Shown: one piece after another, positions 20,570-58,530 of the stretch
Numbering within the stretch: the stretch's first letter is position 1
Layout: the number at the start of each line of letters is the position of its first letter
Source of the DNA: Cyanidioschyzon merolae
Lineage: Eukaryota
Assembly (NCBI GenBank): GCA_000091205.1
Contig: AP006490.2
DNA: 64,000 nucleotides
Reading direction: 5' to 3' (one strand)
The notes under the pieces: model-generated
The model's input: the letters and a program-made list of their open reading frames with translations, nothing else
Database searches by the model: none
What the model was told of the DNA's origin: nothing
Position numbers and translations under genes: made by a program

Positions 20570-22260
20570 TCATCGACGCTGCTGACGCGGGCACGCGCCG
20601 ACGACAAAGTCGTTCTTCGGCACCTCCTGCATCGCAGGATCCGCTGCCTTGTTTTCTCCATGCCTCACCGAGGGTGGCGACGAAGACTGAACGCGACGAT
20701 CTACCTTCAAGCGCCGATAGTGTACACATATGGCTACTCCATCGGTTTCGATCATACCAGTATACCTTTTGCTTGCTCGTTTTGACACGTTGGAAATCGA
20801 AGATATATTCTTCAAGTGCGTCTCACGGCTTTCGGCGGCGAATTCTATCTTCCATACATCGAACTCCGATCTGATCTCCTTCATGATGCGGTAGAGGATT
20901 CTGGAGTCGATAGCCACAAATTGTGACTTGATGCTGCACAACGGAACGACACGGAAGTACTTACCCATTAGGGCAGCCTGCCGTTTCTCTGAATCTTCAT
21001 TTTTCCCCCTTCACCTGCCTCCATCTCCGCCTCGCGTTCGAGTTCTCGGTTCAGGAACACGATATAGCGCAGGATGAGGGGATAAAATCTATTTTCATCT
21101 GTTTTCATATATGCTACCTGTTCTGCTGGGTTGACCAGCCCCAAAACTGCACGGTGCTCTTGAATAGGCCCACGGGTTCCAGGAGCGCCATTCTTTCTCC
21201 TGTGTGATGTGCTCTCGTCGACGAATTCGATTTCCTTTTCATTCTTACTATCGTTAGTGATGCCATCGATGATGGTCCATCTTGCCCTGCGAGAGCGGCC
21301 TGGGTACAGCGCAATGATGGAGCGTACAATGAAGCGTTTGAGGTTCACGATCATGTAGTTCCTCCGGTTCTTGAAGTACTTGATCGCCGCGTAGGTGTAA
21401 ATATCCGCGTTACCCCTTATGTTGCGTACCGTCGCAGCGGTATTCGGGCTGGATTTCGTGGGGGCCATATACTTGCTCATTTGTCCTCGATGTATCCCCC
21501 GTGCTAAGCACCAGATAGCTGATGAATGTCTTGTCGAAAAATTCTTACGGAACCTCGACTGTTCTGATGTCTATCACGTCGCGATGGATCTCCTTCACCA
21601 AACGCACTAGTCATGAAGAAACCTTCTTAATAATCGATGAGTACGACTCGACAAGGTTTCTGATGCCCTGTTGGAACTTTTGCTTGCACGGATCCTTGAT
21701 ACGTCCGAGAGGAGTGGCTTTCACCACCATCTCGTCGTCCTGTTGTCGTTCGTGCAGCTCGTGACGTCTGACCTCCTCCTTTTGCTTCGTCGTCTTTTCC
21801 TGTTCCTAACTGCTCCGCTGTGTTTTTCGTTTTTTTCCGGCAACCGGCGATACCTGCCCTCCAGCATCCTGCATTTCGTTCTCCATGACATCCCCTTTTT
21901 ATTTTTGTTTTGGAAAACAACTCACTTTGAAAGCTCCTGCTATAAAACGCGAGAAACCACTTGAAAACACTAATTTGAGGGCTAAAACCCCATCGAAATG
22001 AAAGACTGTAACTTTTTATGACTTCAAGGCACATACAACTTGTGCATCAGAACAACAAGTCATTGAATGGTTAAGATCGCGTTTCCCTTCAACGGCGGCA
22101 TACGCGTCGTGTCTCATGCCTGCCAGGTCTCCCAGGTGCGCGTATCGATAAAAGACACGTGTCCGACGCCGCATTCGCACATGCGTGCTCTCACCGGCGC
22201 TCTGCGGCACATGCGGCAGCTGGTAATTTAAGAAAAACGAAAAAGCGGACATTCCCGCGC
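20570..22260 (-). pseudogene. TnpB/Fanzor-like element, family 1, copy A1: N-terminal (WED/REC-like) half only, ending just before the RuvC-I position
   Basis: ORFs 21627-22034, 20968-21480 and 20570-20968 (-) are collinear homologues of 40462-41825 (+). Shared segments include [100 protein letters not shown] and [30 protein letters not shown]. There is a TAA where copy B2 has Asp, and an indel in a G-run at ~20990. Homology stops at ...DFVVGA. Confidence 0.6.
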
Positions 22261-23760
22261 GGATGATCTGAGCTTACAGACTTTCAATTCTATTGCGTTT
22301 CGCCCCCGCTGCAGTGTATATGAGGACGTCGAAATAACTGTGCAACTTACCGTATATATCGTAGGTAAATTGTCTGCAGGATATATTCATTACTGAACAG
22401 CTCATGGAGGACTGCGTTCATCCTTCAGGTCAGTCGCACAATAATACGCAGATGGTTGATGAACACTGAAAGTAACAAGTAGGTAAGCACCGCACCAAAA
22501 ACTGGTATTCTCAAAGACTGCTAGCGATCAGTGGTAGAGAGCGACTCTTCGCTCACCGTACGGAAAGTTGGAGCGACGATAGAAGCCACTGCGACCGTCT
22601 CTGTTTCTCAACAGCTTGTTCACATTGCCCTGAAAACGCTGGGATACATTCGCAAAAGAAGACTCCATTCATTCACGGCCACCTTCCACCGGAATTGTAA
22701 CGACAGCGCTCCGGGTACCCAGCGATCGGTATGAAGCACAGGGTCGCCGGGTTTGCTTTTCCATTCGTTGAGACTTTCTTCGGACGCAACGGTCGGAGTA
22801 TGTATGGGTATTCGCGAAGCAGGGCCCCCGTTGTAAATACGATCGAAATCGAAGAGAACGAGGATATCTTCATCAGTCTTAGCTGCAGTGGATTCATTTG
22901 ACGGCCTCAGTTTCGCACCTACGGAAGGCGCATACAACAGAACCCTCTTCGTCGGATCATCGAAGACTTTTCTCAGACGTCTGGTGACGTCCTTCGATTC
23001 CACAATGTTGCATTTCACCATTCCCCTTGCATTCGAGTTTTTACTGAATCTTTCGGGATAGAGCTGCTTTCCATTCCTCCGTGCGCTCCTTGATTCAACG
23101 CCATCGAGGGAGCATTTTGTATCGTGAAACGTAATGATCGCTTTCCTTGCCGAATCGCTGAAGCGTCCGGCGTACGGTGCCACACCAGGGGCGCATTTCG
23201 TCTTTTTTCCACACGTCCTTCTCTGTCCATGCAGGTTCTCACCTTAGTGCATCAAGAAGTGTGTTCGTTTTGAAGAAATACAATATCCAAGAGATTAGCT
23301 GGGGTGTACACTCCAGAAGGTCGAGATAGAGAGTGGCCAGCGAAGCGCTTCGGCGATAGAAAAGCACGAAGAGGTGGCAGAGCAGCAAACGGCACAGAGA
23401 GAACCTGTTCGAGGAATCTTTGCATTAGTGCGTCCAACCAGAGGCAATCAACGTACGGAGTTCGTGGACCAAGACTTCAACGCCGTCATCCATATCAAAC
23501 GATGCGTGGTGCGGATGACGAGATTCGCGGACCTGATACGATCCAACTTTATGGGCCAGCCGCTCAGGCTCAACGTGTACAAAGAGAAATTGGAATCGAT
23601 AGCAGGGGTCCGGTCTTTAACGACTGGGAGGCGTCTGCACGTCGGTATTCATTTACCCTCCATAACTGTGAAACATTTAGTGTTTCACTGACTCTACAGA
23701 AGACGGCAATGGACTTGGGCCTGTGTCCCCTTAAGGATCGATTGCATTGAAGCATGGGTC
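22260..23760 (+). pseudogene. TnpB/Fanzor-like element, family 1, copy A2: 5-prime-truncated unit carrying the C-terminal RuvC-III region; head-to-head with A1
   Basis: Nucleotide-collinear with 38170-39600. ORF 23374-23691 carries RTEFVDQDFNAVIHIKRC (RuvC-III-like, Asp at 23473-23475) and a conserved tail ...RSNFMGQPLRLNVYKEKL. Frameshifts relative to copy B2. Confidence 0.55.
23374..23691 (+). pseudogene. RuvC-III-bearing C-terminal fragment of family-1 TnpB/Fanzor-like gene (copy A2)
   Basis: Shows EFVDQDFNAVIHI, which fits the TnpB DRDxNAAxNI pattern. Confidence 0.5.
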
Positions 23761-33985: not shown

Positions 33986-36619
33986 ATGCTAGCCGCGCAA
34001 CGACACGCTCCCTCAACAGGAGCCCAAGCAGGAAACATATGCAAGAAGTCAACGCGTTCCGTTCGACTGCTGCTACTACTGCTGCTCTGTTCTAGTCTGA
34101 TGGACCCACAAAGCGCTCCCGGCCACGGAACAGTGGTCAACAACGGTCTGTACCTGTTTAGAGAGGCTTATACACCGACTCCGCACGACTCACCCGAGTT
34201 TCCGAACGCAACGCTGCCGTCGGCATGGAAGCGCTTCAACTACCATACCTATAGCAGCATGGTGATCACGCTAGCACGCTTAGCGTATTCATATCCTGCT
34301 TTTGCTCGTCTGTACACGACACAGGCAGCATTTGGACTACCAGCAGCTGGCGAATCATGTTCTATCGACACGCACCAACCCATGAGCCAAGAGGCGTTAA
34401 CGGGACTCGACCAGAAGCAGCGCCTCGCTGTAAAGCGCCTCATCGAAGAGCTTCGCACCCAGGATGGTCTGTCACGCAACGCTTGCCGTGTATGGGTACT
34501 CGAGATCGCCGACAGGTCTTCGGTTGCCCAGGGATCCGTCGGAAGCGTGCTGGATCCTCCAGCGATTCTCATTTCTGGTGCATTGCACGGTGATGAGCGC
34601 ATTGGCCCGACTGCGGTTACAGAGCTTGCACGCGTGCTCCTCGAAGCAAGCCGGCTGCCTGCGGGTTCAGTGGACACTCATCGTTGGCGCGCCTCAGCTG
34701 CCGAAGAAGCCGACGGATCCATTTTCGGTAGCACTGCGGGTTCGCTGTCCTCGTGGCTGCGTTTCCTGGTCGGACACCGACGTATCACCATTGTGCCTGC
34801 AGCCAATGCGATAGGGTTCGCGCTCGGCGAACGCACCGAACTGGGTGTCGATCCAAATCGGGACTTTCCCTGGAATCAGCCATACGGGGCGTCATGTTTG
34901 GAAAGCGTTGCCGCTCGCTCCATTCATGAACTCGTTTTAGCAAATACTTACCAAATGATGCTGACGTTTCACGGTGGAACAACGGTAATTGGTTACGAAT
35001 GGGGCGACCTGACGCATTGCCCTGAGCAGCAGTATTGCCGTCGCAACTCGCCAGCCCCAGATATAATTGCCATGCAAACGATTGCTTACGCTTTGCGATT
35101 GCATGCGGGGAACGGGACGCGTTATGGGGCGCGACCCTTTGACATCGGGACAATGGGCGATACCGTTTATCCGGTGGCAGGTGGAATGGAGGACTGGGCG
35201 TACGGCGCATCGGCCCCGGTGCAGACGTCACTTGTCTCGATTTGTAACGCGAGCCGATACGGCGGCTATGCACCCGTTAAAGTGCAGGCAGTGCGGCAGC
35301 TCCCCGTAGCGCGCATGATTGCCCTGCTCATCGAAACCGCTGATGATAAGCAACCTTCTGTGGAGACATTGGGCGTTCGACCGTTGGGCGCTGCCGGCAA
35401 TGCCCCCTGGCAGGCCGACGTTCGACTCATCACCGAAACGCCAACAGTGTCCGCGGATGGCTCGGAGTCAGATTCTGAACTGGTTGTCGAAGGGCACGTG
35501 TGGCGGAACTTGCGCCTCGCACTCCAGGCTATCGATATCCTGCAACCGTATGCGGCATTCACACGGTATCCCGGCGATGGACGAACGCAAGCAGCGGACA
35601 ACGCGACGGCCGCATCAATAGTCTGTTGGCGGGTCGGTGGAGCATACCACGTTGCTGAGACGCAGTTGCAAGGATGGTACGACTCTGGGGCTGCAGCGAG
35701 GATACGGCAGAATCAGGACAGTGCCCCGGACTTTGTGAGCGAGGCCTTCATAGACGCGTCTCCCGATCCGGTACCTTTCTTTCCAGCTGTTCGACTAGGA
35801 CAGGGTACCCGCTGGTCTCCTGATAATCATGGAGGTCGCGAGTTTTGTGTGAACCTCCAGCAGCAGCAGCAGCAGCAGCAGCAACCGTTCACCGGAGCAA
35901 AGCGTCCGCCACGGGGCTCCAGCATCCTGCTGCGCGTGCGCTTCCAGGCCGACGTCGACTGGGGTCGCTTACCGCCGAGTACGCTCGGAGCGCAGCCACC
36001 AAACACCAGGCCCTGGAGTTTTCTCGCCCAAAGTCGTGTGGAGTACAACTCTAACTCCACTAAATTTGCTGACGAGCGTCCGTCCACGTCCGAAGAAGAC
36101 GGTGTCGCTCGGGGCACAAACTGGTTCTCACGTGGACTCCACTGCCGAGCGTCTGAGGTGAGCACAGGGCATCAGCCGCAAGTCTGGACCTGCGTGCACA
36201 GTGAAGTCGCTAGAGGAACCGAATTAGGCGAGTCAGGGGCCATGTCCGGCTGGAGCAAGCTTTTGTTGGCGATCTCCGTCTTCCTCCTGGCGCCAGGGTC
36301 GTTTCCGCTGCTCCTGTTTCTCAGCTTTCTACTTTGGCGTCTGGTGCGAGGCCAGTCTGTGCATCCCGCTGAGGTATGGTTTGAGGCACGTCAACGAATG
36401 GAGATGTGGATGCAGGGACTAAGGGCGTTGGGACGGGCGCGAGGCCCAAGTGGAACTCGAGTTTCTGGGTCGTTTGCGCGTTCCACTGACCTCGACGACA
36501 CGAAACGCCGTATGCTTTCGCCGACAGCCAGCAGCGCCGCCGCAGCCGAGCGAGACGCTAGCAGCAGTGCACATGACCTGGACTTGGAGGCGAGCACGCG
36601 GCGCCCAGACAGGCCCTGA
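33986..36619 (+). CDS. M14 metallocarboxypeptidase-like protein with poly-Gln tract and C-terminal hydrophobic anchor (start uncertain: 33857 GTG, 33884 ATG or 33986 ATG)
   Basis: Shows M14 blocks: ILISGALHGDERIG (Zn-binding HxxE), NRDFPWN, LTFHGGTTVIGYEWGD, AGGMEDWAYG and ALLIETADD (catalytic Glu block). A signal-peptide-like run RSVRLLLLLLLCSSL follows the ATG at 33986. A (CAG)9-10 run encodes Q9 at 35858-35890. A TM-like LLLAISVFLLAPGSFPLLLFLSFLLW lies near the C-terminus. Confidence 0.7.
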   Translation: MLAAQRHAPSTGAQAGNICKKSTRSVRLLLLLLLCSSLMDPQSAPGHGTVVNNGLYLFREAYTPTPHDSPEFPNATLPSAWKRFNYHTYSSMVITLARLAYSYPAFARLYTTQAAFGLPAAGESCSIDTHQPMSQEALTGLDQKQRLAVKRLIEELRTQDGLSRNACRVWVLEIADRSSVAQGSVGSVLDPPAILISGALHGDERIGPTAVTELARVLLEASRLPAGSVDTHRWRASAAEEADGSIFGSTAGSLSSWLRFLVGHRRITIVPAANAIGFALGERTELGVDPNRDFPWNQPYGASCLESVAARSIHELVLANTYQMMLTFHGGTTVIGYEWGDLTHCPEQQYCRRNSPAPDIIAMQTIAYALRLHAGNGTRYGARPFDIGTMGDTVYPVAGGMEDWAYGASAPVQTSLVSICNASRYGGYAPVKVQAVRQLPVARMIALLIETADDKQPSVETLGVRPLGAAGNAPWQADVRLITETPTVSADGSESDSELVVEGHVWRNLRLALQAIDILQPYAAFTRYPGDGRTQAADNATAASIVCWRVGGAYHVAETQLQGWYDSGAAARIRQNQDSAPDFVSEAFIDASPDPVPFFPAVRLGQGTRWSPDNHGGREFCVNLQQQQQQQQQPFTGAKRPPRGSSILLRVRFQADVDWGRLPPSTLGAQPPNTRPWSFLAQSRVEYNSNSTKFADERPSTSEEDGVARGTNWFSRGLHCRASEVSTGHQPQVWTCVHSEVARGTELGESGAMSGWSKLLLAISVFLLAPGSFPLLLFLSFLLWRLVRGQSVHPAEVWFEARQRMEMWMQGLRALGRARGPSGTRVSGSFARSTDLDDTKRRMLSPTASSAAAAERDASSSAHDLDLEASTRRPDRP
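35858..35890 (+). repeat. (CAG)9-10 trinucleotide repeat inside carboxypeptidase CDS (poly-Gln)
   Basis: Direct reading. Confidence 0.9.
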
Positions 36620-39149
36620 AATGCGTCCAATTGTATGCACTGCATTGCTTGTATTTATCGTCACATAACGTGACGAGTTACGCAGGAGTTTTCGCCACGT
36701 GTACCCGGGTATGTTTGGGCCGGATACCCGGAGACCGCACTTTGCTTGTATTTCACGGTATATATTGAAAGATGGAGGGCGATGCGCGGAGCGCTCCCGG
36801 AGTCGTAACTACATTCATTTCGCGGACTTGTTGTTGGTGTCATGAAACCGCTTCAGGTCAGTTGCCGCATGCCTGCGGACGACGTGTCGCTCGGGTGGTT
36901 GCCCGAGTAGCGCCGCGATACGCCCGCTCCTGGTGCGCATCGCCAGTGGAGGCGTTTCCATTTGGGTTGTACTCCTGCTCGAGTGATCCACGGCGATGAC
37001 AGGTATCCAAAGTGCTCACGTAAGAGTGACTTGCATGGATGAATGATGATGGTGAAGTGCTGCGATGCGTCGGAAGCACCGTTGTCCGTCTGAATCGTGT
37101 GCGCTGCTTTCGTTCTGGCTGGAGCGGAATGATCTATTTCGGGAAGGAATACGCGCAGTATCGCTGGGGCCGCTGCAGACCTCGCTTCGATAGATGCTGG
37201 CGCGTTACTTGCGTTTTCTTGTACGACATACCCGAGAATACTTTCGATGCTGCAACGTCGAAGACGTAGAAATGCTGCAGCAACTATTCGTGTTGCTGTT
37301 GCTGTGTAGGCGTCTTTGTGTACAGCCAGGCTTGTGCGCCCGTGTTCGTCATCGTCGATCGAGGCATGTACACAACCATTCTTTTGGACCAAACGCTCCA
37401 CTTATGTGACGGGTACCGATCCGAGCAAGGATTCCTGGAAGCATGTGCGTGCATACGCGGGCTCTCTTCCGGTCTCGTGACCAGACGGTCGTCCAGTGGG
37501 ATGCTGGTACCGCAATCAGCGCCGCAGTGCTTGCGAGCGGCTCGCATGCATCCAAACTCGTTCGCCGTTCACGATATCATGCCATGGTGCGATGGAAATT
37601 AATTCTTCATCGTCTTCAATACGGCTAGGAATTAAGCTGGGGTACGGATACGCTGCTGGCGAGCGCGTTTCAGCGGACGTTTGGCTCACACGCTGACGCT
37701 GCTCATTCAACGGTACATGTGCCCGACGCGCCTGCACTCGCGACAGCGGCGCGCTGTAGCGAGCGGCTTGCCACGAGATGCCAAGTCGCGCACAGCAGTA
37801 GAACGCTGACGTGCTGCAACGACTCGTAGACGCTGGGCCCGCGCATTCGCCCTGCACCGTCGTACCAGAGCAGGCGCAGGGACGCGTCCGGATGCAGGGT
37901 GTTGAACGTACGAGCGTTTTCCAAAAATATACAGAAATGTTCCGTTTGTGCTAGATGAACAAGGAATACCAGGCGTGTACTGTCGCCCGATCGGTGCTTG
38001 CGAGCCACATCCAGTAGGGAAAAAATGTACATAAATGTGCTGTATTGTCTAGACACCCTGATGACACTTGGCATGCCCGCTGCCTCGTTGCCATTTGGAC
38101 CGGGAAGCGCGGAACGGCGGGCGCGCAGACACCATGCCTTGCCCGCCTGGCATCAGCGCTAGCAGCGCAGGTGCGGGTGACGTCTTTGAACTCGAGTATG
38201 GTCTGCCGCCGCTTTCTGCAATCGAATGCATTTTCGCATTGTATACCATTAGATCGAAATGAGCATGCCGTGTACCGAACAGAACGTAGACATGTTGCCT
38301 GCAGAAAATGTTCTGCAATGAACAGTGCAACGAGGACTGCATTCTTCACTCTATTCAGTCGTACTGCAGTGCTCTGATGGTTGAGGAATATTGAAAGAAA
38401 GAAGGATATGCGCTCCGTGCCAAAAAAGATAGGCTTAAAGACTGATTGCGTTCAATCGTGGAACAACGATGCGTTCATCAACTTATGGAACGCAAAATCG
38501 ACGATAGCAACGGCAACGAGTGTCTCCGGTTCTGATCAGATTGTCCATGTTCTATTAAAAACACTGGAACACAGTCCCAAAAATACTTCTGTTTCACGCA
38601 CGGGCATCTTCCACCAAAGTCGTGACGATAGCGTTCCTGGAACGTTACGATCGGTATGAAGCGCAAGGACGTAGGGTTATGTTTTCAGTCGGTGAGACTC
38701 GCTTCGGACGAACCGTTCGGAGCGTATACGGGAATTTGCGGAGCACGGAGCCCGTTCTATGCACGATCGAGCTCGAAGAGAAGGCTCATACATCAGCACT
38801 CACTCTCTCGAATCAATGAAGGATTTTGCCGGACGTCTGACGACCTTGCTCTACTGGACAACGTCGCATTTCACCATTTCCCTTCGCTTTGGAGCTTTTT
38901 GCCGATGCAGTCGGGGTAGAGCTGCTTTTCATTTATGTGCACGCTTCGTGGTCGAACCGCATCAAATGAGTTGTTTCTGTCATGAAACGTAATGATCGCT
39001 TCACTGGTCGAATCCCTGGACCATTCAGTATAGCGTGAAACACTGGGACACTAGTCGTCATTCCTGCGCAAGTCCGTCTCCGCCGGGAAGGACCTCACCA
39101 AGGTCCATAAAGAAGTGCGTTCACTATGAAGAAATAAGAAATCCAAGGG

Positions 39150-39524
39150 GTGAGCTGGGGTGCAAAGTCCTGCAGGTCGAGATGGCTAAAAAGCAGCGGA
39201 GCCCTGATGATATATAGAAAAGTATGGAGCGCTGAGAGAAGAGGAAACGAAGGGATGGCGCAAGTTCGAGGACTACTCGCACTGGCGGGTTTAAGCGGCG
39301 AGGGCAATAAACACGTGGAGTTCGTGAACCGAGACTTGAAAGCTGCTATCAATATCAGGAGATGCACGGTGCTGGAATGGAGACCTCCGGAGCTAACACG
39401 ATCCATCTCTGTAGGACAAACTTTTAAGGTGGAATTATACGATAATGTGTTGAAATCAGTTGTAGGCGGCCGGTCCAAGACGACGGAAACACGTCTGTAC
39501 GTCAGTCGGAGACGTTTTGTCTAG
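39150..39524 (+). pseudogene. RuvC-III-bearing C-terminal fragment of family-1 TnpB/Fanzor-like gene (copy B1)
   Basis: Shows FVNRDLKAAINI, i.e. the DRDxNAAxNI pattern with Asp and NI conserved. Confidence 0.55.
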
Positions 39525-39600
39525 GGCGCTGGTCGCCTGCTACTGTACACCGTTGGCGTCGTTCGACTTTAGAACGGCGTTTGTCGTTCGTGTGCAGTCG
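39525..39600 (+). ncRNA. candidate OMEGA/guide RNA scaffold tail (conserved structured 3-prime non-coding segment of family-1 element, copy B1)
   Basis: About 65 nt immediately after the stop are conserved with 42919-42985 (ggcgctggtcgcctgctactgtacaccgttggcgtcgttcgactttagaacggcg vs ggcgggtcactcgccactactgtatacggtcggcgtcgttcgacttgcgaacggc). They contain two hairpins (ggcg-loop-cgcc and cgttcg-loop-cgaacg) whose loops differ between copies. Similarity stops abruptly after ~65 nt. Confidence 0.25.
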
Positions 39601-41860
39601 TCGATGTACGGGTTAGGCTCTCGAAACTAATCGTATAGAGTAGACCTGAATACAGTACGCGCTTTTGTCAAGTGCCTCGATCGTGCCAGGCGAGATGCAA
39701 GGCTCAAACCTCATGGCAGACATGGACGCTACCTGTGTGCACTGCCTCTGCCAAGATCGCCGGATCCGGAGGACGAAGCAGGCACCATAACTTGGACAAC
39801 GACAGCAGCATGGAATTGAATTGAACTGCCAGCAGTTCCAGAACATAACACGGGATAGAAGCAAAATTCAGGTCAGTTCCTTAATCCGGCGTCCGTGCGG
39901 CATGCATAAGAAGCATAGGGATGAAACGTATATCCGTGTTCAGGAACACCACCGTACGTTGTTTGGTTACGATCAATAAAACTAACGAAATTCCTAATGA
40001 GTAGAGCGATGCACACCTCATCCGCACGAGCGTAGGATACTACGATGGCTACGCTTTTGATTGAAGCGTCGAGAGGAATCGTGTCAGGCGCCTGCATCCC
40101 CTTGTATGTCAGGGCGGTACTGCGATGGGCGGGAGCGTCGGCACCAGCGACATAGCCTATAACAGGAGATCGTTCTGCGTGAGTTTCCGATCTAGGACAC
40201 TTGCTTTCCGCTGCAGCGCGATGCGAACACGCATGTGCCAATGCGGGGTGTCGGACACGTGTCCTTCATCGATCGGTGAGGCGTCTCGCGCGGTGCACGC
40301 ATCGCGCTCGGTGAGTGCACCTCGTAGATCGGGCAGTCAACTGACACGATGCGCATGCCGCCGTTGAAGAGTAACGCGATTGGGATCAGTAGCGTGTAGC
40401 TGTAACGTAAAAGCTGGATTTCAGGTGAGGTCTTAGCCAAGTACAGTCTTTCAGTTCATTTTTGTTTCAGCCCTCAAACAAGTGTATTCAAGTGTTTTTT
40501 TCGCAGTGTATAACAGAAGCGTTCAAAGAGCGTTCTTGTTCAAAAAAACTAAAAAAGGAAAGATATGAAAAAGCAAGTCGACGATCCTGGAGGCACAGGG
40601 TCGCCGGCTGCCAGAAAAAAAAACAAAAATCAGTACCGAGTCCAGAGGAAAAGGAGGAGAAGAGGAAGGACCGAAATGGGGAGGTCCTACGTCGAAGGCG
40701 ACAAGAAAGACGACTTTACGACCAGATGGTGGATAAAAGCTGTCTTCTTAAACATATCTATGATCCCTACAGGGAAAAGTTGCGAGACGCTATCAAAGAA
40801 CGTGTTGCGTCATACTCGAAGAGTATTGTCAAGGCGTCATCAGGACTAGTGCATTTGGCGAGGGAGATGTATCGCGACGTGGCGCACATGGAAACGGTCG
40901 AGATTCCGGACGAGTTTTTCGACAAGACCTGTATTCGTCACCTGATGGTTGGTAGCGAGGAAGCGCGGAGGGAAAATATGCTATTGCATGCCCTGCACGA
41001 AAACATCGCGGAATTCTGCTTCGAGGGTACCCCATTCAGGGGTGACCCGGATATTTACACATACGGGGCGATGAAGTACCTCACGAACCTGAAGAACCTT
41101 TTGACAATGAACCTGGACCGTTTCGTAGTACGCGCCGTATTTTTGTGCTCTACCCGCGCGTCTCTCGCAACGGGATATGGACAATTTCAATGCCATCACG
41201 AAAGATCGTAAGCATGAATATGAGGTCGAATTTGTCGACAAGAAGCCGTCACGCAGGAGAGCAAATGATGATTCCGTCATCCGTTTGGTCATACAAGAGC
41301 ACCGTGCGGTACTGGGGTTGGCGAATCCAACAGAAAGGATATCAGAGTTAAAAAACGATAAGGAAAGATACGATCGCCTCATTCTGCGGTATTTAGTGCT
41401 TCTAGACCTAGAACTTGAATGCAAGGCAGAGATGAAGCTGAGTGGGGAAAAATGAAGAGTGGGAGAGACGGAAGGCTTTCCTTATGGGTAAGCGCTTCAA
41501 CGTCGTACCAGTGTGCAACATCAAGTCGCATTTTGTGACCGTCGACTCCATAGTCCTTTACAGCATCATGATGGAGATCAGTCCGGAGTTGAATGTTAGC
41601 AGGGAGGAGTTCACCGGCGAAAACCGGGAGACGTACTGGAAGAGCATCTTCGATTTCAAACGTCTCAAAGTAAGCAAACAAAAGGTATTCACTGGGATGA
41701 TCGAAACCGATGGAGTAGCCATGTGTGTACACTCTCGGCGGTTGAAGAAAGATCGTCCTGGCCCGCCTTTGGCTTCGCCCGTGACGAAGGATGAAGAAAA
41801 CAAAGAGGAGGATCCTGCGATGTAGGAGGTAGTGGGCAACAACGTTGCCGTTGACGTGAC

Positions 41861-42010
41861 GAAGTATGAAGATGAGAAGGAGGCGGAACCTGCGACGCAG
41901 GAGGTGGAGGATAACGACCTTGTCGTTGCCGCGGCGAAGTATGAAGATAAGAAGGAGGCGGATCCTGTGATGCAGGAGGTGGAGGATGACGACTTTGCCG
42001 TTGGCGCGGA
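41861..42010 (+). repeat. 75-bp tandem duplication (x2) inside the family-1 copy B2 coding sequence
   Basis: Encodes [25 protein letters not shown] followed by [24 protein letters not shown]. Copy A1 has a single unit. Confidence 0.7.
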
Positions 42011-42487
42011 CCCCGGAAACACAAATATCATCACCATCGCAGCACCGAAGCGTGCGGAAGATGGTACTGGCGGCAACTTACGCCAGAAAGACATGTGACT
42101 TTTGAGGTTCTCGAGCGCGAAATACTATCGAGAATCGGGAATAATGAATGCGAGGAAACAATTCGAGATATGGTATGCAGGAGTGAAAGCGCATTTGAAG
42201 CGATCAGCCAGGTGACGAGCCGTGGAACGAACTTTGAAGCTTTTCGGATATTCGTGAAAGTTCGTGTTGCCCATTTGGAGGCGCTGTGGAAAGAGTATAT
42301 AAAGCCCAGATGGGCTCGTTTGCGTATGAATCTGTACTGTGGTAAGCAGCGTGCGTTCGCGAACTTTTTCAATCATTTGAGCACCCTGAAAGAGGACAAG
42401 ACTCAAAGGCTCGAAGTAGCGTATGGGGAGGGGCGCTGGCTCACCCAAAAAGGGTACACACCAGTTCCAACGACAAGAACTTACTAG

Positions 42488-42790
42488 GAGTGCGCAAGGC
42501 GTTTCGTTACGGTACCGATCGATGAGTTTCGAACATCGTACACACACCACGAGCTGGGGTGTACACTTCAGTGGGTCGAGATGGAAAAGTGTCAGCGGAG
42601 CTCTGAAAATACAAAAAAGTACGGACCGCTGACGGAAGAGCAAATGGAAAGGAGGGCGAAAGTTCGAGGGCTACTCGCATTAGTAAGTACAGTCAGTGGC
42701 AAGAAACGTATCGAGTTTGTGAATCGTGACTTTACCGCAGCTATCAACAGAACGAGATGTGCGGTGATGGAAGGTAGACCGCCAGACTAG
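42488..42790 (+). pseudogene. RuvC-III-bearing C-terminal fragment of copy B2 (in the same frame as 42095-42487, separated only by TAG at 42485-42487)
   Basis: Shows ECARRFVTVPIDEFRTSYTHHELGC...KRIEFVNRDFTAAINRTRC. Confidence 0.6.
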
Positions 42791-42918
42791 ACAAGAGAGA
42801 ACTTTGTTGGACAACCTCTCAAAGTGGAATCATATGAGACAAACTTGAAACAAGTAGTAGGTGGCCCGTCGAAACAGACTGGCACGCGTCTGCACTTCAG
42901 TTGGAGCCGTTTTGACTA

Positions 42919-42990
42919 GGGCGGGTCACTCGCCACTACTGTATACGGTCGGCGTCGTTCGACTTGCGAACGGCATTCTCTAGCGGTGCC
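42919..42990 (+). ncRNA. candidate OMEGA/guide RNA scaffold tail of family-1 copy B2
   Basis: Conserved with 39525-39590 and carries the same two hairpins; it lies at the right end of the element, directly upstream of the VAMP gene. Confidence 0.25.
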
Positions 42991-43037
42991 AGCTTTTAAA
43001 CGCGCTCGAGTCGAACGGAAACTCGATTTGAGAAACC

Positions 43038-43799
43038 ATGGGAGACGCTGGTGCGCCCACTTCGAGTGACAACGTTCCGAACCTGCTGTACTGCGCTATT
43101 TGTCGTTGGGAAGACCGTGTGGTCCTTGCTCGGTACGCTGCGCCCCGGGCAGGAGTCGCACTCGCTGAAACCGGTGCGAGCACCGCCGCCTTCGCGGAGA
43201 CCCTAAGACGCATTCTCCAGTCGAAAAAGATAGCCGAGCACAAGCGCTTAACCATTGAAGAAAAACAACTGGGAATGATCCACTACGACAACGACGGTAC
43301 CTGCATGTACGTGGTATTCTGTCGCGCGTCGTACCCGCAGCGCCTTGCGTTCCAGTTCCTGAACGAGCTGCGGTCGGAGTTCTTGCGCACAGTCGGTAGT
43401 CGCCCTGAAGACGTCGCTTCTGCGACCGAGAATAGCTTGACGAAGCTGTGTCGGCCGTTGATGAGCGAGCTCTGTACCCTGTACGATACGCCTTCGGGAC
43501 TGGATAAGATGTCGCGGATTCGCATGCAGGTCGAGGAGGTCAAGGGCCACATGCAGGACAACATCCACCAAGTTATGAAAAACACCGACGACTTGGAGCA
43601 GCTACAGACGCAGTCGGAGGGTCTGCGCGGGGAGGCAAGTGCTTTCCATCGTTCAGCTGGCACCGTGGAACGCAAGTACTGGTGGAAGAACGCTCGGATG
43701 ATCTGCGTTCTCGTCGTGCTCGTGATACTCATCATTATCGCCATCATCGTTCCGATTATTGTGACACGAAATAACAACAGCAGCAGCTCCTCTGGTTGA
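43038..43799 (+). CDS. longin-domain R-SNARE (VAMP7/synaptobrevin-like)
   Basis: Shows an N-terminal longin fold (LLYCAICRWEDRVVLARY...), an R-SNARE heptad region with the central Arg (HQVMKNTDDLEQLQTQSEGLRGEASAFHRSA) and a C-terminal TM (MICVLVVLVILIIIAIIVPIIV). ATG at 43038. Confidence 0.85.
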   Translation: MGDAGAPTSSDNVPNLLYCAICRWEDRVVLARYAAPRAGVALAETGASTAAFAETLRRILQSKKIAEHKRLTIEEKQLGMIHYDNDGTCMYVVFCRASYPQRLAFQFLNELRSEFLRTVGSRPEDVASATENSLTKLCRPLMSELCTLYDTPSGLDKMSRIRMQVEEVKGHMQDNIHQVMKNTDDLEQLQTQSEGLRGEASAFHRSAGTVERKYWWKNARMICVLVVLVILIIIAIIVPIIVTRNNNSSSSSG

Positions 43800-44551
43800 G
43801 GGTTTGACGAGTCTGGCGCCGAACGCATTCGCGAAGCAGTGCGCTGGAAGGCGAGTAGCTGCCGCCTTGGTCCAAGGACCTGTTGCCTATTTATCGTCGT
43901 CGACGGCGGACGCGTTGTCGCAACGAGTGAGCGCGTTGGGGCGCTGCATACAGGTTCACAGCCTCTGACACAAGGCCGTGGACGATGCCATAGCGCGTGG
44001 GGCTCTCGGGGAACGCGCGCGTTCGCCCACCTTGAAAAGCGGGGTTCGGACGGTGCACGATGCACGATCCCGTGTTCGGGCATCAAGCGCCAAAGACATG
44101 AATGCACCACATGAGAATGCTCAAGAACGAGTTTATTGTCGAGGGGGAGATTCTATGGGCGCTTGCGCAGCTTTGCAGCGACAGAGCCGCCGAAAACCCG
44201 ACCGCAACGGGACGCCATAAAGGCAATGGTCTTAACGGGGATGCCAGTGCCAAAAAATGCACTCCTGCCCTGTATCGTAGACGACGAAACAGTGGCAGGA
44301 CAGCGCTTCGCGGCGCGCGAAAAATCCATGGATTCTGCGTCCCGTCTGTTCGAAAGAATGGTGTGCTTGCGTTTCACGCGGCACTACAGCGTTCACATCG
44401 ATGCAAGGCGTATTCAAAGCGCAGTAGACAAAGGCGTCAACAACGGCGTTTCGAGTGAATGCAGGGGAATCGATGCATGCATACGCGCCTTCATACCTCT
44501 GAGCGTATCCAGGACAGTCACAAGCGCTCTCATGTGGTCAGAGCCACGTGC

Positions 44552-45337: not shown

Positions 45338-45547
45338 GTATCCTTAGGACTCACCCAAATACACTCCAACATGCATCACACAAACGCATCCTACCATAAA
45401 AAGCTGCATGAAGCGCCCCACTAGAGAAACATCCCGCTGTGTACCAGCAGCACCGCATCGATGGTGCACGCGGCATCGAGTTGCGCGCCTGGCGGGGATC
45501 GCCACAGCGCCGCCTCCAGCCGCCGCGTCGACGCCGGACACGGCAGG

Positions 45548-45672
45548 CAGGTATACAGGGATACAGGTATTCAGGGATACAGGTATTCAGGGATACAGGT
45601 ATTCAGGGATACAGGTATTCAGGGATACAGGTATTCAGGGATACAGGTATTCAGGTATACAGGTATACAGGT
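45548..45672. repeat. 16-bp tandem repeat (GGGATACAGGTATTCA, ~7 units) in the RanBP1 upstream region
   Basis: Direct reading of 45548-45672. Confidence 0.9.
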
Positions 45673-45758
45673 AGGTAGATAGATACGTGTGTTCCTCAGT
45701 TTCAAGGACGGCTGCTGCACAGCGCTTTTGGACCGCGATCAGAGCAGCTGGCTCTAAC

Positions 45759-58122: not shown

Positions 58123-58309
58123 CCCAGAAGTGATGCTTCCCCACTTCGCTGGTTAGTTGACCCAGTACTCCAACTTTGCGCCCAACTTGTGATTCTTGGG
58201 ACGTTTCTGAGCGCCGTCACCGCACGTGTTCTGCGGCTTCGTAGCACGTGTTTTCGGCTACCGGACAAGCATTGATGCCTCTTGGCGTTCGCGCGGCAAC
58301 GGGGCGATC

Positions 58310-58530
58310 ACCAGCAGCTGTGCAGGGCTACATCCACAGATACGACTCTATGGGCTGTATAAGGTGTTGCTATCTAGCGAGATGTATGCTTTCAATGAAA
58401 TTACCAGCAGCTGTGCAGGGCTACATCCACAGATACGACTCTACGGCCTGTATAAGGTGTTGCTATCTAGCGAGATGTATGCTTTCAATGAAATTACCAG
58501 CAGCTGTGCAGGGCTACATCCACGAGTCCT
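58310..58530. repeat. 93-bp tandem repeat, ~2.4 units
   Basis: The unit accagcagctgtgcagggctacatccacagatacgactctatgggctgtataaggtgttgctatctagcgagatgtatgctttcaatgaaatt is repeated at 58310, 58403 and (partially) 58496. In ORF 58226-58660 it encodes a 31-aa repeat. Confidence 0.85.

Follow-up and report, generated by a model that had tools for sequence, protein, structure and literature searches.

A candidate guide-RNA scaffold at the right end of decayed Fanzor1 copies in Cyanidioschyzon merolae

Two decayed Fanzor-type reading frames lie close together in the window, by which we mean the whole 64,000-nt stretch of C. merolae contig AP006490.2 analysed here, and each is followed directly after its stop codon by a similar, hairpin-forming tail. 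Is this tail the scaffold of a guide (omega) RNA, as the initial annotation proposed, or some other sequence with which such an element ends? The family concerned (2013) and the guide-RNA principle (2023) are both already known, and for the field a scaffold at this position would be an expected feature of a known system, met here in decayed copies. The family was described (Bao & Jurka 2013, PMC3627910) before RNA guidance had been discovered, in a paper that makes no mention of the 3' tail, of its hairpins or of the common boundary at which it ends. A search of the accessible literature found no later paper linking a guide RNA to the C. merolae Fanzor family.

Fanzor1 copies in the window and their family

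The window holds the following Fanzor-related features, with the basis of each assignment in brackets:

20594..22201, minus strand: N-terminal fragment of another copy, 3'-truncated and without tail (self-BLAST)
22348..23691, plus strand: B0, third C-terminal Fanzor1 pseudogene, without tail (self-BLAST, covariance model)
38273..39524, plus strand: B1, C-terminal half of a 5'-truncated, frameshifted Fanzor1 (CMe-1A) pseudogene (self-BLAST)
39582..40214, plus strand: 5' non-coding module of B2, about 634 bp, directly abutting the B1 tail (fits the 635-bp TE-N2_CMe-like part)
40215..42919 (start approximate), plus strand: B2, full-length but dead Fanzor1 reading frame (translation, protein matches, profile)

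B1 ends in a TAG stop at 39522-39524, and its RuvC-III motif reads EFVNRDLKAAINIRRC, with several frameshifts in the three-frame translation. The RuvC motifs of B2 are still readable (RuvC-III is EFVNRDFTAAIN) and its conceptual protein has matches at 60–76% identity, all in JGI metagenomes; the frame is interrupted by frameshifts and by in-frame stops at 41823-25, near 42485-87 and at 42788-90. The terminal TAG of B2 occupies 42917-42919. The tail accordingly starts at 39525 in B1, as first annotated, and at 42920 in B2, not at 42919, which is the G of the stop codon.

None of the copies at the locus retains an intact reading frame, as B0, B1 and B2 each carry multiple frameshifts and in-frame stops, and in every tail-bearing copy examined the terminal ORF is broken or short. 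Because B1 and B2 are frameshifted, stop-riddled pseudogenes, whatever their tails once did is at best a relic at this locus. The two tails could be relics outright or, at most, serve an intact copy elsewhere in trans; some intact copies have been described in the C. merolae genome (Bao & Jurka 2013, PMC3627910).

The similarity of B0 to the other copies stops about 25 nt short of the B1/B2 stop position. B0 (22348-23691, plus strand) and the N-terminal fragment (22201-20594, minus strand) are arranged head-to-head, and both are tail-less. Within the Fanzor frame of B2, just upstream of RuvC-I, three 75-nt tandem repeats encode acidic units (41780-42004); their number varies among family members, with more in the relatives P0001 and P0010. 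The neighbouring SNARE gene (43038-43799) has a product identical to BAM79839.1 of C. merolae 10D. At 45516-45695 and 58307-58492 we find a 16-nt (8+8) tandem array, CAGGTATT/CAGGGATA, of about 11 units, plus a 93-nt direct duplication of 97% identity, and these have no relation to the Fanzor copies.

On their sequence, matched to the published description, the window repeats are members of CMe-1A, which lacks a transposase and is the only Fanzor1 family that Bao & Jurka (2013, PMC3627910) describe from C. merolae. It was described as some 150 copies, about 80% identical to their consensus and about 3 kb long, with no terminal inverted repeats (TIRs), no detectable target-site duplications (TSDs) and an unknown element class; its 5' 635 bp are another repeat, TE-N2_CMe (PMC3627910). 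The copies studied here agree with that description in host genome, in a unit of about 3 kb, in a mutual identity of about 80% across 2.7–3.4 kb, in the absence of TIRs and in a 5' module of about 635 bp.

The gene is a true Fanzor1, a conclusion drawn from profile matches to Fanzor1 chains in the PDB, from the conserved RuvC D/E/D residues and from PF07282 in relatives. A profile search of 1.8 billion representatives retrieved 2474 relatives, and 54 of these were aligned to build the family profile. Against the PDB it matches PpFz1 of Parasitella parasitica (9cf0, E=1.7e-21), SpuFz1 of Spizellomyces punctatus (8gkh, 1.3e-13; Saito et al. 2023, PMC10432273; Xu et al. 2024, PMC11423790) and GtFz1, the solved Fanzor1 protein of Guillardia (9cer, 1e-8). 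This depth was needed, as phmmer with a single sequence, and likewise a shallow profile, gave no match in the PDB. In the 54-relative alignment (A9), the RuvC columns D484 (DPG) and E656 (DEFRT[ST]) are invariant, and D725 (NRDxNAAxNI), beside the invariant R724, is present in at least 90% of relatives. PF07282, the zinc-ribbon domain of TnpB/Cas12f (TNB), is matched in 9 of the 54 relatives (best 5.4e-6); the C. merolae-type proteins reach E=0.04–0.23 at best and have HH..C..C in place of the C4 finger. Pfam gave no significant match to window ORF fragments or single relatives, and an AlphaFold2 model from a 19-sequence alignment (pLDDT 38) was too poor for a fold search. One relative, P0030 (28% identical), lies at a single-copy locus (L088; GCA_037963435.1, JBALJU010019647.1, 458-3275), where a DDE_3 (Tc1/mariner-type) transposase gene stands immediately upstream of it. 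Fanzor1 as a transposon passenger is the classical arrangement, and the C. merolae family does not have it.

The tail and the right end of the element

The same parts follow one another in the tail of either copy: a GC hairpin that includes the stop codon (H1), the linker ACTACTGTACAC, a hairpin of 10–12 bp with G.U pairs and compensatory changes (H2), the hexamer GGCGKT, an extension of 10–17 nt and then unrelated flank. All parts are on the plus strand:

39525..39537: B1 H1, GGCG at 39525-28, loop CTGGT, CGCC at 39534-37 (fold)
39538..39550: B1 linker TGCTACTGTACAC (family consensus CACTACTGTACAC), nearly invariant across copies (copy alignment)
39555..39581: B1 H2, GGCGTCGTTC at 39555-64, loop GACTTTA, GAACGGCGTT at 39572-81 (fold)
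39582..39597: B1 G/T-rich extension TGTCGTTCGTGTGCAG (sequence comparison)
42920..42934: B2 H1, GGCGGG at 42920-25, loop TCA, CTCGCC at 42929-34 (fold)
42935..42946: B2 linker ACTACTGTATAC (copy alignment)
42951..42977: B2 H2, GGCGTCGTTCG at 42951-61, loop ACTTG, CGAACGGCATT at 42967-77 (fold, covariance model)
42978..42993: B2 subfamily-specific extension CTCTAGCGGTGCCAGC (CGGTGCCAGC is common to the independent copy L032)

Both hairpins described at first, ggcg/cgcc and cgttcg/cgaacg, are thus found in B1 and in B2, and in both copies the second sits inside the longer H2 stem. Aligning 39525-39581 with 42919-42977 gives 46 identical columns out of 60 (76.7%), and a gap-free 42-nt core is 86% identical. 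Over the next 60 nt identity is 51%, as between unrelated sequences aligned globally with gaps, which bears out the earlier claim that the copies are alike after the stop and unrelated beyond. The length of about 65 nt given for the conserved stretch was too generous, the strongly conserved part being 57–58 nt; in B1 it closes with GGCGTT. A covariance model of the tail matches B2 at 42896-42983 with 90 bits.

In the family, the stop UAG can add three pairs with CUA of the linker, taking H1 to 7 bp with one bulge. The B1 extension (39582-39597) belongs either to the very end of B1 or already to the start of the 5' module of B2, and within it GTGTGCAG (39590-97) can pair with CTGTACAC (39543-50) in an 8-bp closing stem. 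As a general feature, a closing stem of CTGTACAC with the G/T-rich extension is possible but unsupported, cognate pairs scoring not significantly above non-cognate ones (p=0.07). The same applies to a helix between ORF and tail, in which CAGTAGTRG, located in the ORF some 70 nt before the linker, would pair with CCACTACTG; most copies have it, and it shows no covariation (p=0.75).

More than 400 related stretches were detected in related hot-spring metagenome contigs. A scan of these contigs with the C-terminal 203 residues yielded 79 loci among more than 410 confirmed relatives, and once identical sequences and loci with the same flank were dropped there remained 44 independent insertions, including B1 and B2. 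The same tail closes at least 44 independent insertions with unrelated flanks, a recurrence far beyond chance. In nearly all of them the stop codon is followed by GGCG-loop-CGCC, CACTACTGTACAC, an 8-nt variable spacer and GGCGTCGTTCGA-CTT-TCGAACGGCGTT; nine appear truncated or diverged within H2. The covariance model matches all 44 with E between 1e-6 and 1e-29, and in the window it matches B1 and B2 only. The model finds one tail per Fanzor copy. No tail without an adjoining Fanzor remnant was found in the covariance-model search, the two extra tails (L055:446-530 and L068:30-102) both being on truncated copies.

Similarity among the copies ends at a common boundary. Relative to the stop, majority identity per 30-nt bin is 0.85–0.94 in coding sequence, 0.84 from +0 to +29, 0.75 from +30 to +59, 0.40 from +60 to +89 and 0.25 beyond +90. 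When the copies are aligned at GGCGKT, the base after it carries about 0.4 bits of information, down from about 1.8, and about ten A-poor, G/T-rich positions follow before the background level is reached. The first 24 nt past GGCGKT hold 12 copy pairs with identical strings of at least 8 nt, against 2 in each of two downstream control windows; B2 and L032 have CGGTGCCAGC in common, L023 and L058 GTTGGTGTGTG, and L019 and L030 GATGGTGCGG. Since independent copies carry these identical strings, the right end is placed 10–17 nt beyond the point at which B1 and B2 diverge, and is subfamily-specific. The abrupt right end of the initial annotation therefore stands as a common boundary, but not at the exact place given to it, and with 10–17 nt shared within subfamilies the place at which a guide would start is blurred. 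Further downstream, CTTCCRGGG proved to be no general conserved motif. As markers of the right ends of CMe-1A copies, the tails are useful for annotation.

G/T-rich, A-poor sequence (GGTG, GTGTG, (GGCGGT)n) occurs after many tails (35 loci, first 24 nt) and before some 5' ends (L044, L024, L076); it could reflect a target-site preference or a degenerate terminal repeat.

On the 5' side the copies are modular, with subsets carrying at least three unrelated upstream modules, so that neither a left end nor a TAM can be defined. Several apparent 5' truncations are alternative shared 5' modules. Upstream modules of about 700 nt are shared by L019/L080/L052, by L033/L073 and by L009/L061/L067/L072/L028/L027/L058, and one module is inverted in L075. 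No TIRs were found in the copies examined and no TSDs in the 8 evaluable copies, cognate flanks being matched no better than non-cognate ones, and no empty site was identified. Some copies are joined tail to head: the B1 tail meets the ~634-bp 5' module of B2 at 39581|39582, and the full-length metagenome copies L068 and L057 are each preceded by a tail (L068:30-102 and L057:1-70), which is then followed by the copy's own 5' module. Three of the four evaluable full-length 5' ends abut a tail.

Pairing, strand and constraint

The two stems behave differently across copies. In H1, 96% of cells are paired, and variation is confined to G-C becoming G.U, with no double changes; covariation is no better than in shuffles, even with the UAG/CUA extension to 7–9 pairs. 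Within the main tail type, H2 is paired in 88% of cells with few double changes (3 pairs in the MAFFT alignment; 16/500 shuffles). In an alignment of 54 distinct tails fitted to the covariance model, a fitting that biases the counts upward, 13 of 20 H2 pairs changed on both sides (6.1 in shuffles; 1/500), 24 cells changed on both sides (10.9; 0/500) and 36 further pair types appeared (27.3; 0/500). Controls with slid partners reached less than half of the observed score. Each of the ten inner pairs of H2 is changed on both sides in at least one family member. Another tail type (L028, L044, L061, L075, L081) has AACGTTTTTC...GAAAGGCGTT in place of GGCGTCGTTC...GAACGGCGTT, and a manual pair-by-pair reading finds that it keeps ten H2 pairs, of which one has gone from G-C to U-A, one from C-G to U.G and two from G.U to A-U.

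Covariance folding of further copies, the check first suggested for the tail, gave a divided answer: the pairing of H2 speaks for conserved structure in the model-fitted alignment and weakly so in the MAFFT alignment of the main tail type, whereas RNAalifold on MAFFT alignments of the 44 decayed copies returned essentially no consensus structure and H1 adds no covariation. The statement that loops differ while stems are kept holds for the loops and for H2, where pairing is maintained through compensatory and G.U changes, and is not supported by covariation for H1. A search of 36000-44000 against Rfam 15 gave no match at E<=1.

The fold has a strand. The sense strand is the more stable in 38 of the 44 copies (p=4e-6), and the difference persists after shuffle normalisation; three conserved G.U pairs become C.A mismatches on the opposite strand. 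For the B1 tail the minimum free energy is -31.6 kcal/mol in the sense direction (z -2.8) and -19.4 in the antisense direction (z -0.6), and the mean fold z-score across copies is -1.2. The tail is the right-end module of the element, on the sense strand.

Upstream of position -150, synonymous sites of the ORF differ at about 0.25 per site and copy, and the dN/dS-like ratio is 0.14. Over the final 42 codons synonymous change drops to about 0.16 (some 35% lower) and the ratio climbs to 0.37; from about -150 onward codon periodicity is lost. Divergence per site in the tail is about 0.16 over the first 30 nt and about 0.25 in the H2 region, and its majority identities of 0.84 and 0.75 compare with 0.78 at third codon positions. 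As this divergence is close to the synonymous rate, the likeness of the B1 and B2 tails is explained by common descent and is not itself evidence of selection. The argument for function comes instead from the slower ORF end and first half of the tail, from the maintained pairing of H2 and from the strand asymmetry.

One hypervariable codon, 43 positions ahead of the terminal stop, reads TAG in 8 of the 44 independent copies: B2 (42788-42790), L020, L032, L033, L053, L057, L058 and L078. Past this codon the coding sequence is less constrained and synonymous changes are rarer. For some family members this codon may mark the true end of the ORF, the last ~126 nt then being non-coding scaffold.

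Readings of the tail

The tail lies where an omega RNA is looked for, at the 3' end of a nuclease gene and at the right end of the element, before flanks that are unrelated across the 44 independent insertions. The guide RNAs of Fanzor and TnpB systems originate in the non-coding sequence 3' of the gene, next to the right end, and the conserved part may extend into the ORF (PMC10530073). In SpuFz1 a 75-nt scaffold lies between stop and right end and is followed by a 14–15-nt guide (PMC10432273), and in Fz1 omega RNAs the guide is preceded by a 7-bp first stem-loop (SL1) and at least one more stem-loop, SpuFz1 and PpFz1 having a single additional one (PMC11423790). On the strength of its position, orientation, size and two-stem layout, which are those of Fz1 omega RNAs, and of the shared protein family, we consider that the B1/B2 tail is probably a relic omega-RNA scaffold. 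The original proposal is partly supported: what holds of it is the Fanzor1 gene, the right-end position, the sense strand, the pairing kept in one hairpin and the published layout.

We infer that the tail would have been transcribed, processed, bound by the protein and used to carry a guide. As the non-coding right-end module of CMe-1A, it would encode the omega (guide) RNA scaffold of the nuclease and form the 3' portion of a sense-strand Fanzor transcript. The predicted RNA folds into a short GC stem-loop containing the stop, a single-stranded linker ACUACUGUACAC and a stem-loop of 10–12 bp closing with GGCGUU. It would then continue through a short G/U-rich stretch into the neighbouring DNA, which would supply a guide of about 15–20 nt directing RNA-guided cutting by Fanzor1. 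The scaffold may begin within the last ~125–150 nt of the reading frame.

The closest comparison is with the omega RNAs of SpuFz1 and PpFz1, which belong to the same protein family and have a similarly short scaffold (about 60–75 nt) with two stem-loops. The first stem of CMe-1A could reach 7 bp (UAG+GGCG with CGCC+CUA), like SL1, and here too the guide would be expected to come from the 3' flank. However, SpuFz1 has 30-nt inverted repeats and CMe-1A has no TIRs; S. punctatus has ORF-less ghost loci, and none carrying the CMe-1A tail was found; the window copies are pseudogenes, and there is no sequence similarity. The TnpB omega RNA (IS200/IS605, e.g. ISDra2) and the Fanzor2 fRNA (ApmFNuc; PMC10530073) resemble the tail in that the scaffold sits at the 3' end of the nuclease gene, stops at the right end and shows conservation extending back into the ORF. 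Their scaffolds are longer, about 130–200 nt, and the elements, which encode TnpA or rely on it, have defined termini and TAMs; none of these features was found for CMe-1A.

A rather unlikely alternative is that the tail, instead of being a guide RNA, acts in cis as a terminal sequence for copying or moving the element. A transposase supplied in trans might recognise it as a right-end hairpin, or it might be recognised as a 3' stem-loop on an RNA intermediate, as in the tails of stringent-type LINEs and SINEs. The 3' end is constant and the 5' ends variable or modular, there is no TIR, simple G/T-rich sequence of variable length comes next after the tail (L078, for one, has (GGCGGT)n), B1-B2, L068 and L057 show tail-to-head junctions, and the element class is unknown according to PMC3627910, all of which would suit such an end. 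Yet the element has neither reverse transcriptase nor transposase, the flanks give no sign of TSDs, the terminus has no poly(A) and is not of the CTRR/Helitron type, and several of the supposed 5' truncations turned out to be shared 5' modules. Of the features looked for in a non-LTR-type tail, one, G/T-rich simple sequence, occurs in about half the copies; no TSDs (in the 8 evaluable copies), no poly(A) and no reverse transcriptase within the element were found.

Helitrons are known to carry Fanzor1 genes as passengers (PMC3627910), and Helitron and Helitron2 3' termini share with the tail a subterminal GC-rich hairpin near the 3' end and the lack of classical TIRs. CMe-1A, unlike these, has no CTRR, no RepHel and no asymmetric terminal inverted repeat (5' end against sequence upstream of the hairpin). 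A Helitron 3' end, with its hairpin about 10 nt before CTRR, was rejected, the terminus here being GGCGKT plus G/T-rich sequence with no inverted repeat to the 5' end. A cis-acting role is in any case compatible with an omega RNA, since in TnpB and Fanzor systems the right-end sequence is both element end and guide scaffold.

We regard it as quite improbable that the tail has no function at all and is the last stretch of an old repeat whose palindromes were inherited by descent. A tail diverging at about the synonymous rate, an H1 without covariation, a mean fold z-score of only -1.2 and the decay of all copies examined are what this would predict. It does not account for an H2 in which pairing survives double and wobble changes beyond what the shuffle and slid-partner controls show, for a variant tail type that builds the same stem from other sequence, for a first 30 nt of tail and last 126 nt of ORF that change more slowly than upstream synonymous sites, or for a fold that depends on strand.

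UGUA motifs serve 3'-end formation in some eukaryotes. An ordinary role for the tail within the 3' UTR of the Fanzor mRNA, in 3'-end formation, stability or localisation, is very unlikely: sense-strand structure directly after the stop and a UGUA in the conserved linker would fit, but TGTA is not enriched 3' of ten other window genes (5/10 within 140 nt, about chance), and similarity ending at one common element-end point is left unexplained.

Should the tail be an omega RNA, it would be a minimal guide scaffold (about 60–75 nt, two stem-loops) for a Fanzor1 lineage of a thermo-acidophilic red alga with a tiny, genetically tractable genome. Why a transposase-less Fanzor reached some 150 copies in C. 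merolae would then become directly testable. One answer, to which we give very little credence, is that CMe-1A multiplies without a transposase by means of its own guide RNA and nuclease, being copied in by repair. The tail RNA would direct cleavage beside G/T-rich (GGTG-type) sites or beside the right end of resident copies. This would account for the tail-to-head junctions, the constant 3' and modular 5' ends, the GGTG-rich sequence that flanks some insertions on either side and the lack of TIRs and TSDs.

A minor observation concerns assembly. Three Logan contigs with the B1 C-terminal ORF (L094, L095 and L096, from the independent run assemblies of SRR29616394, SRR5248875 and SRR31784488) stop 32–45 nt past its stop codon, inside the tail; these contig ends are most likely breaks of the de Bruijn graph at a multi-copy repeat.
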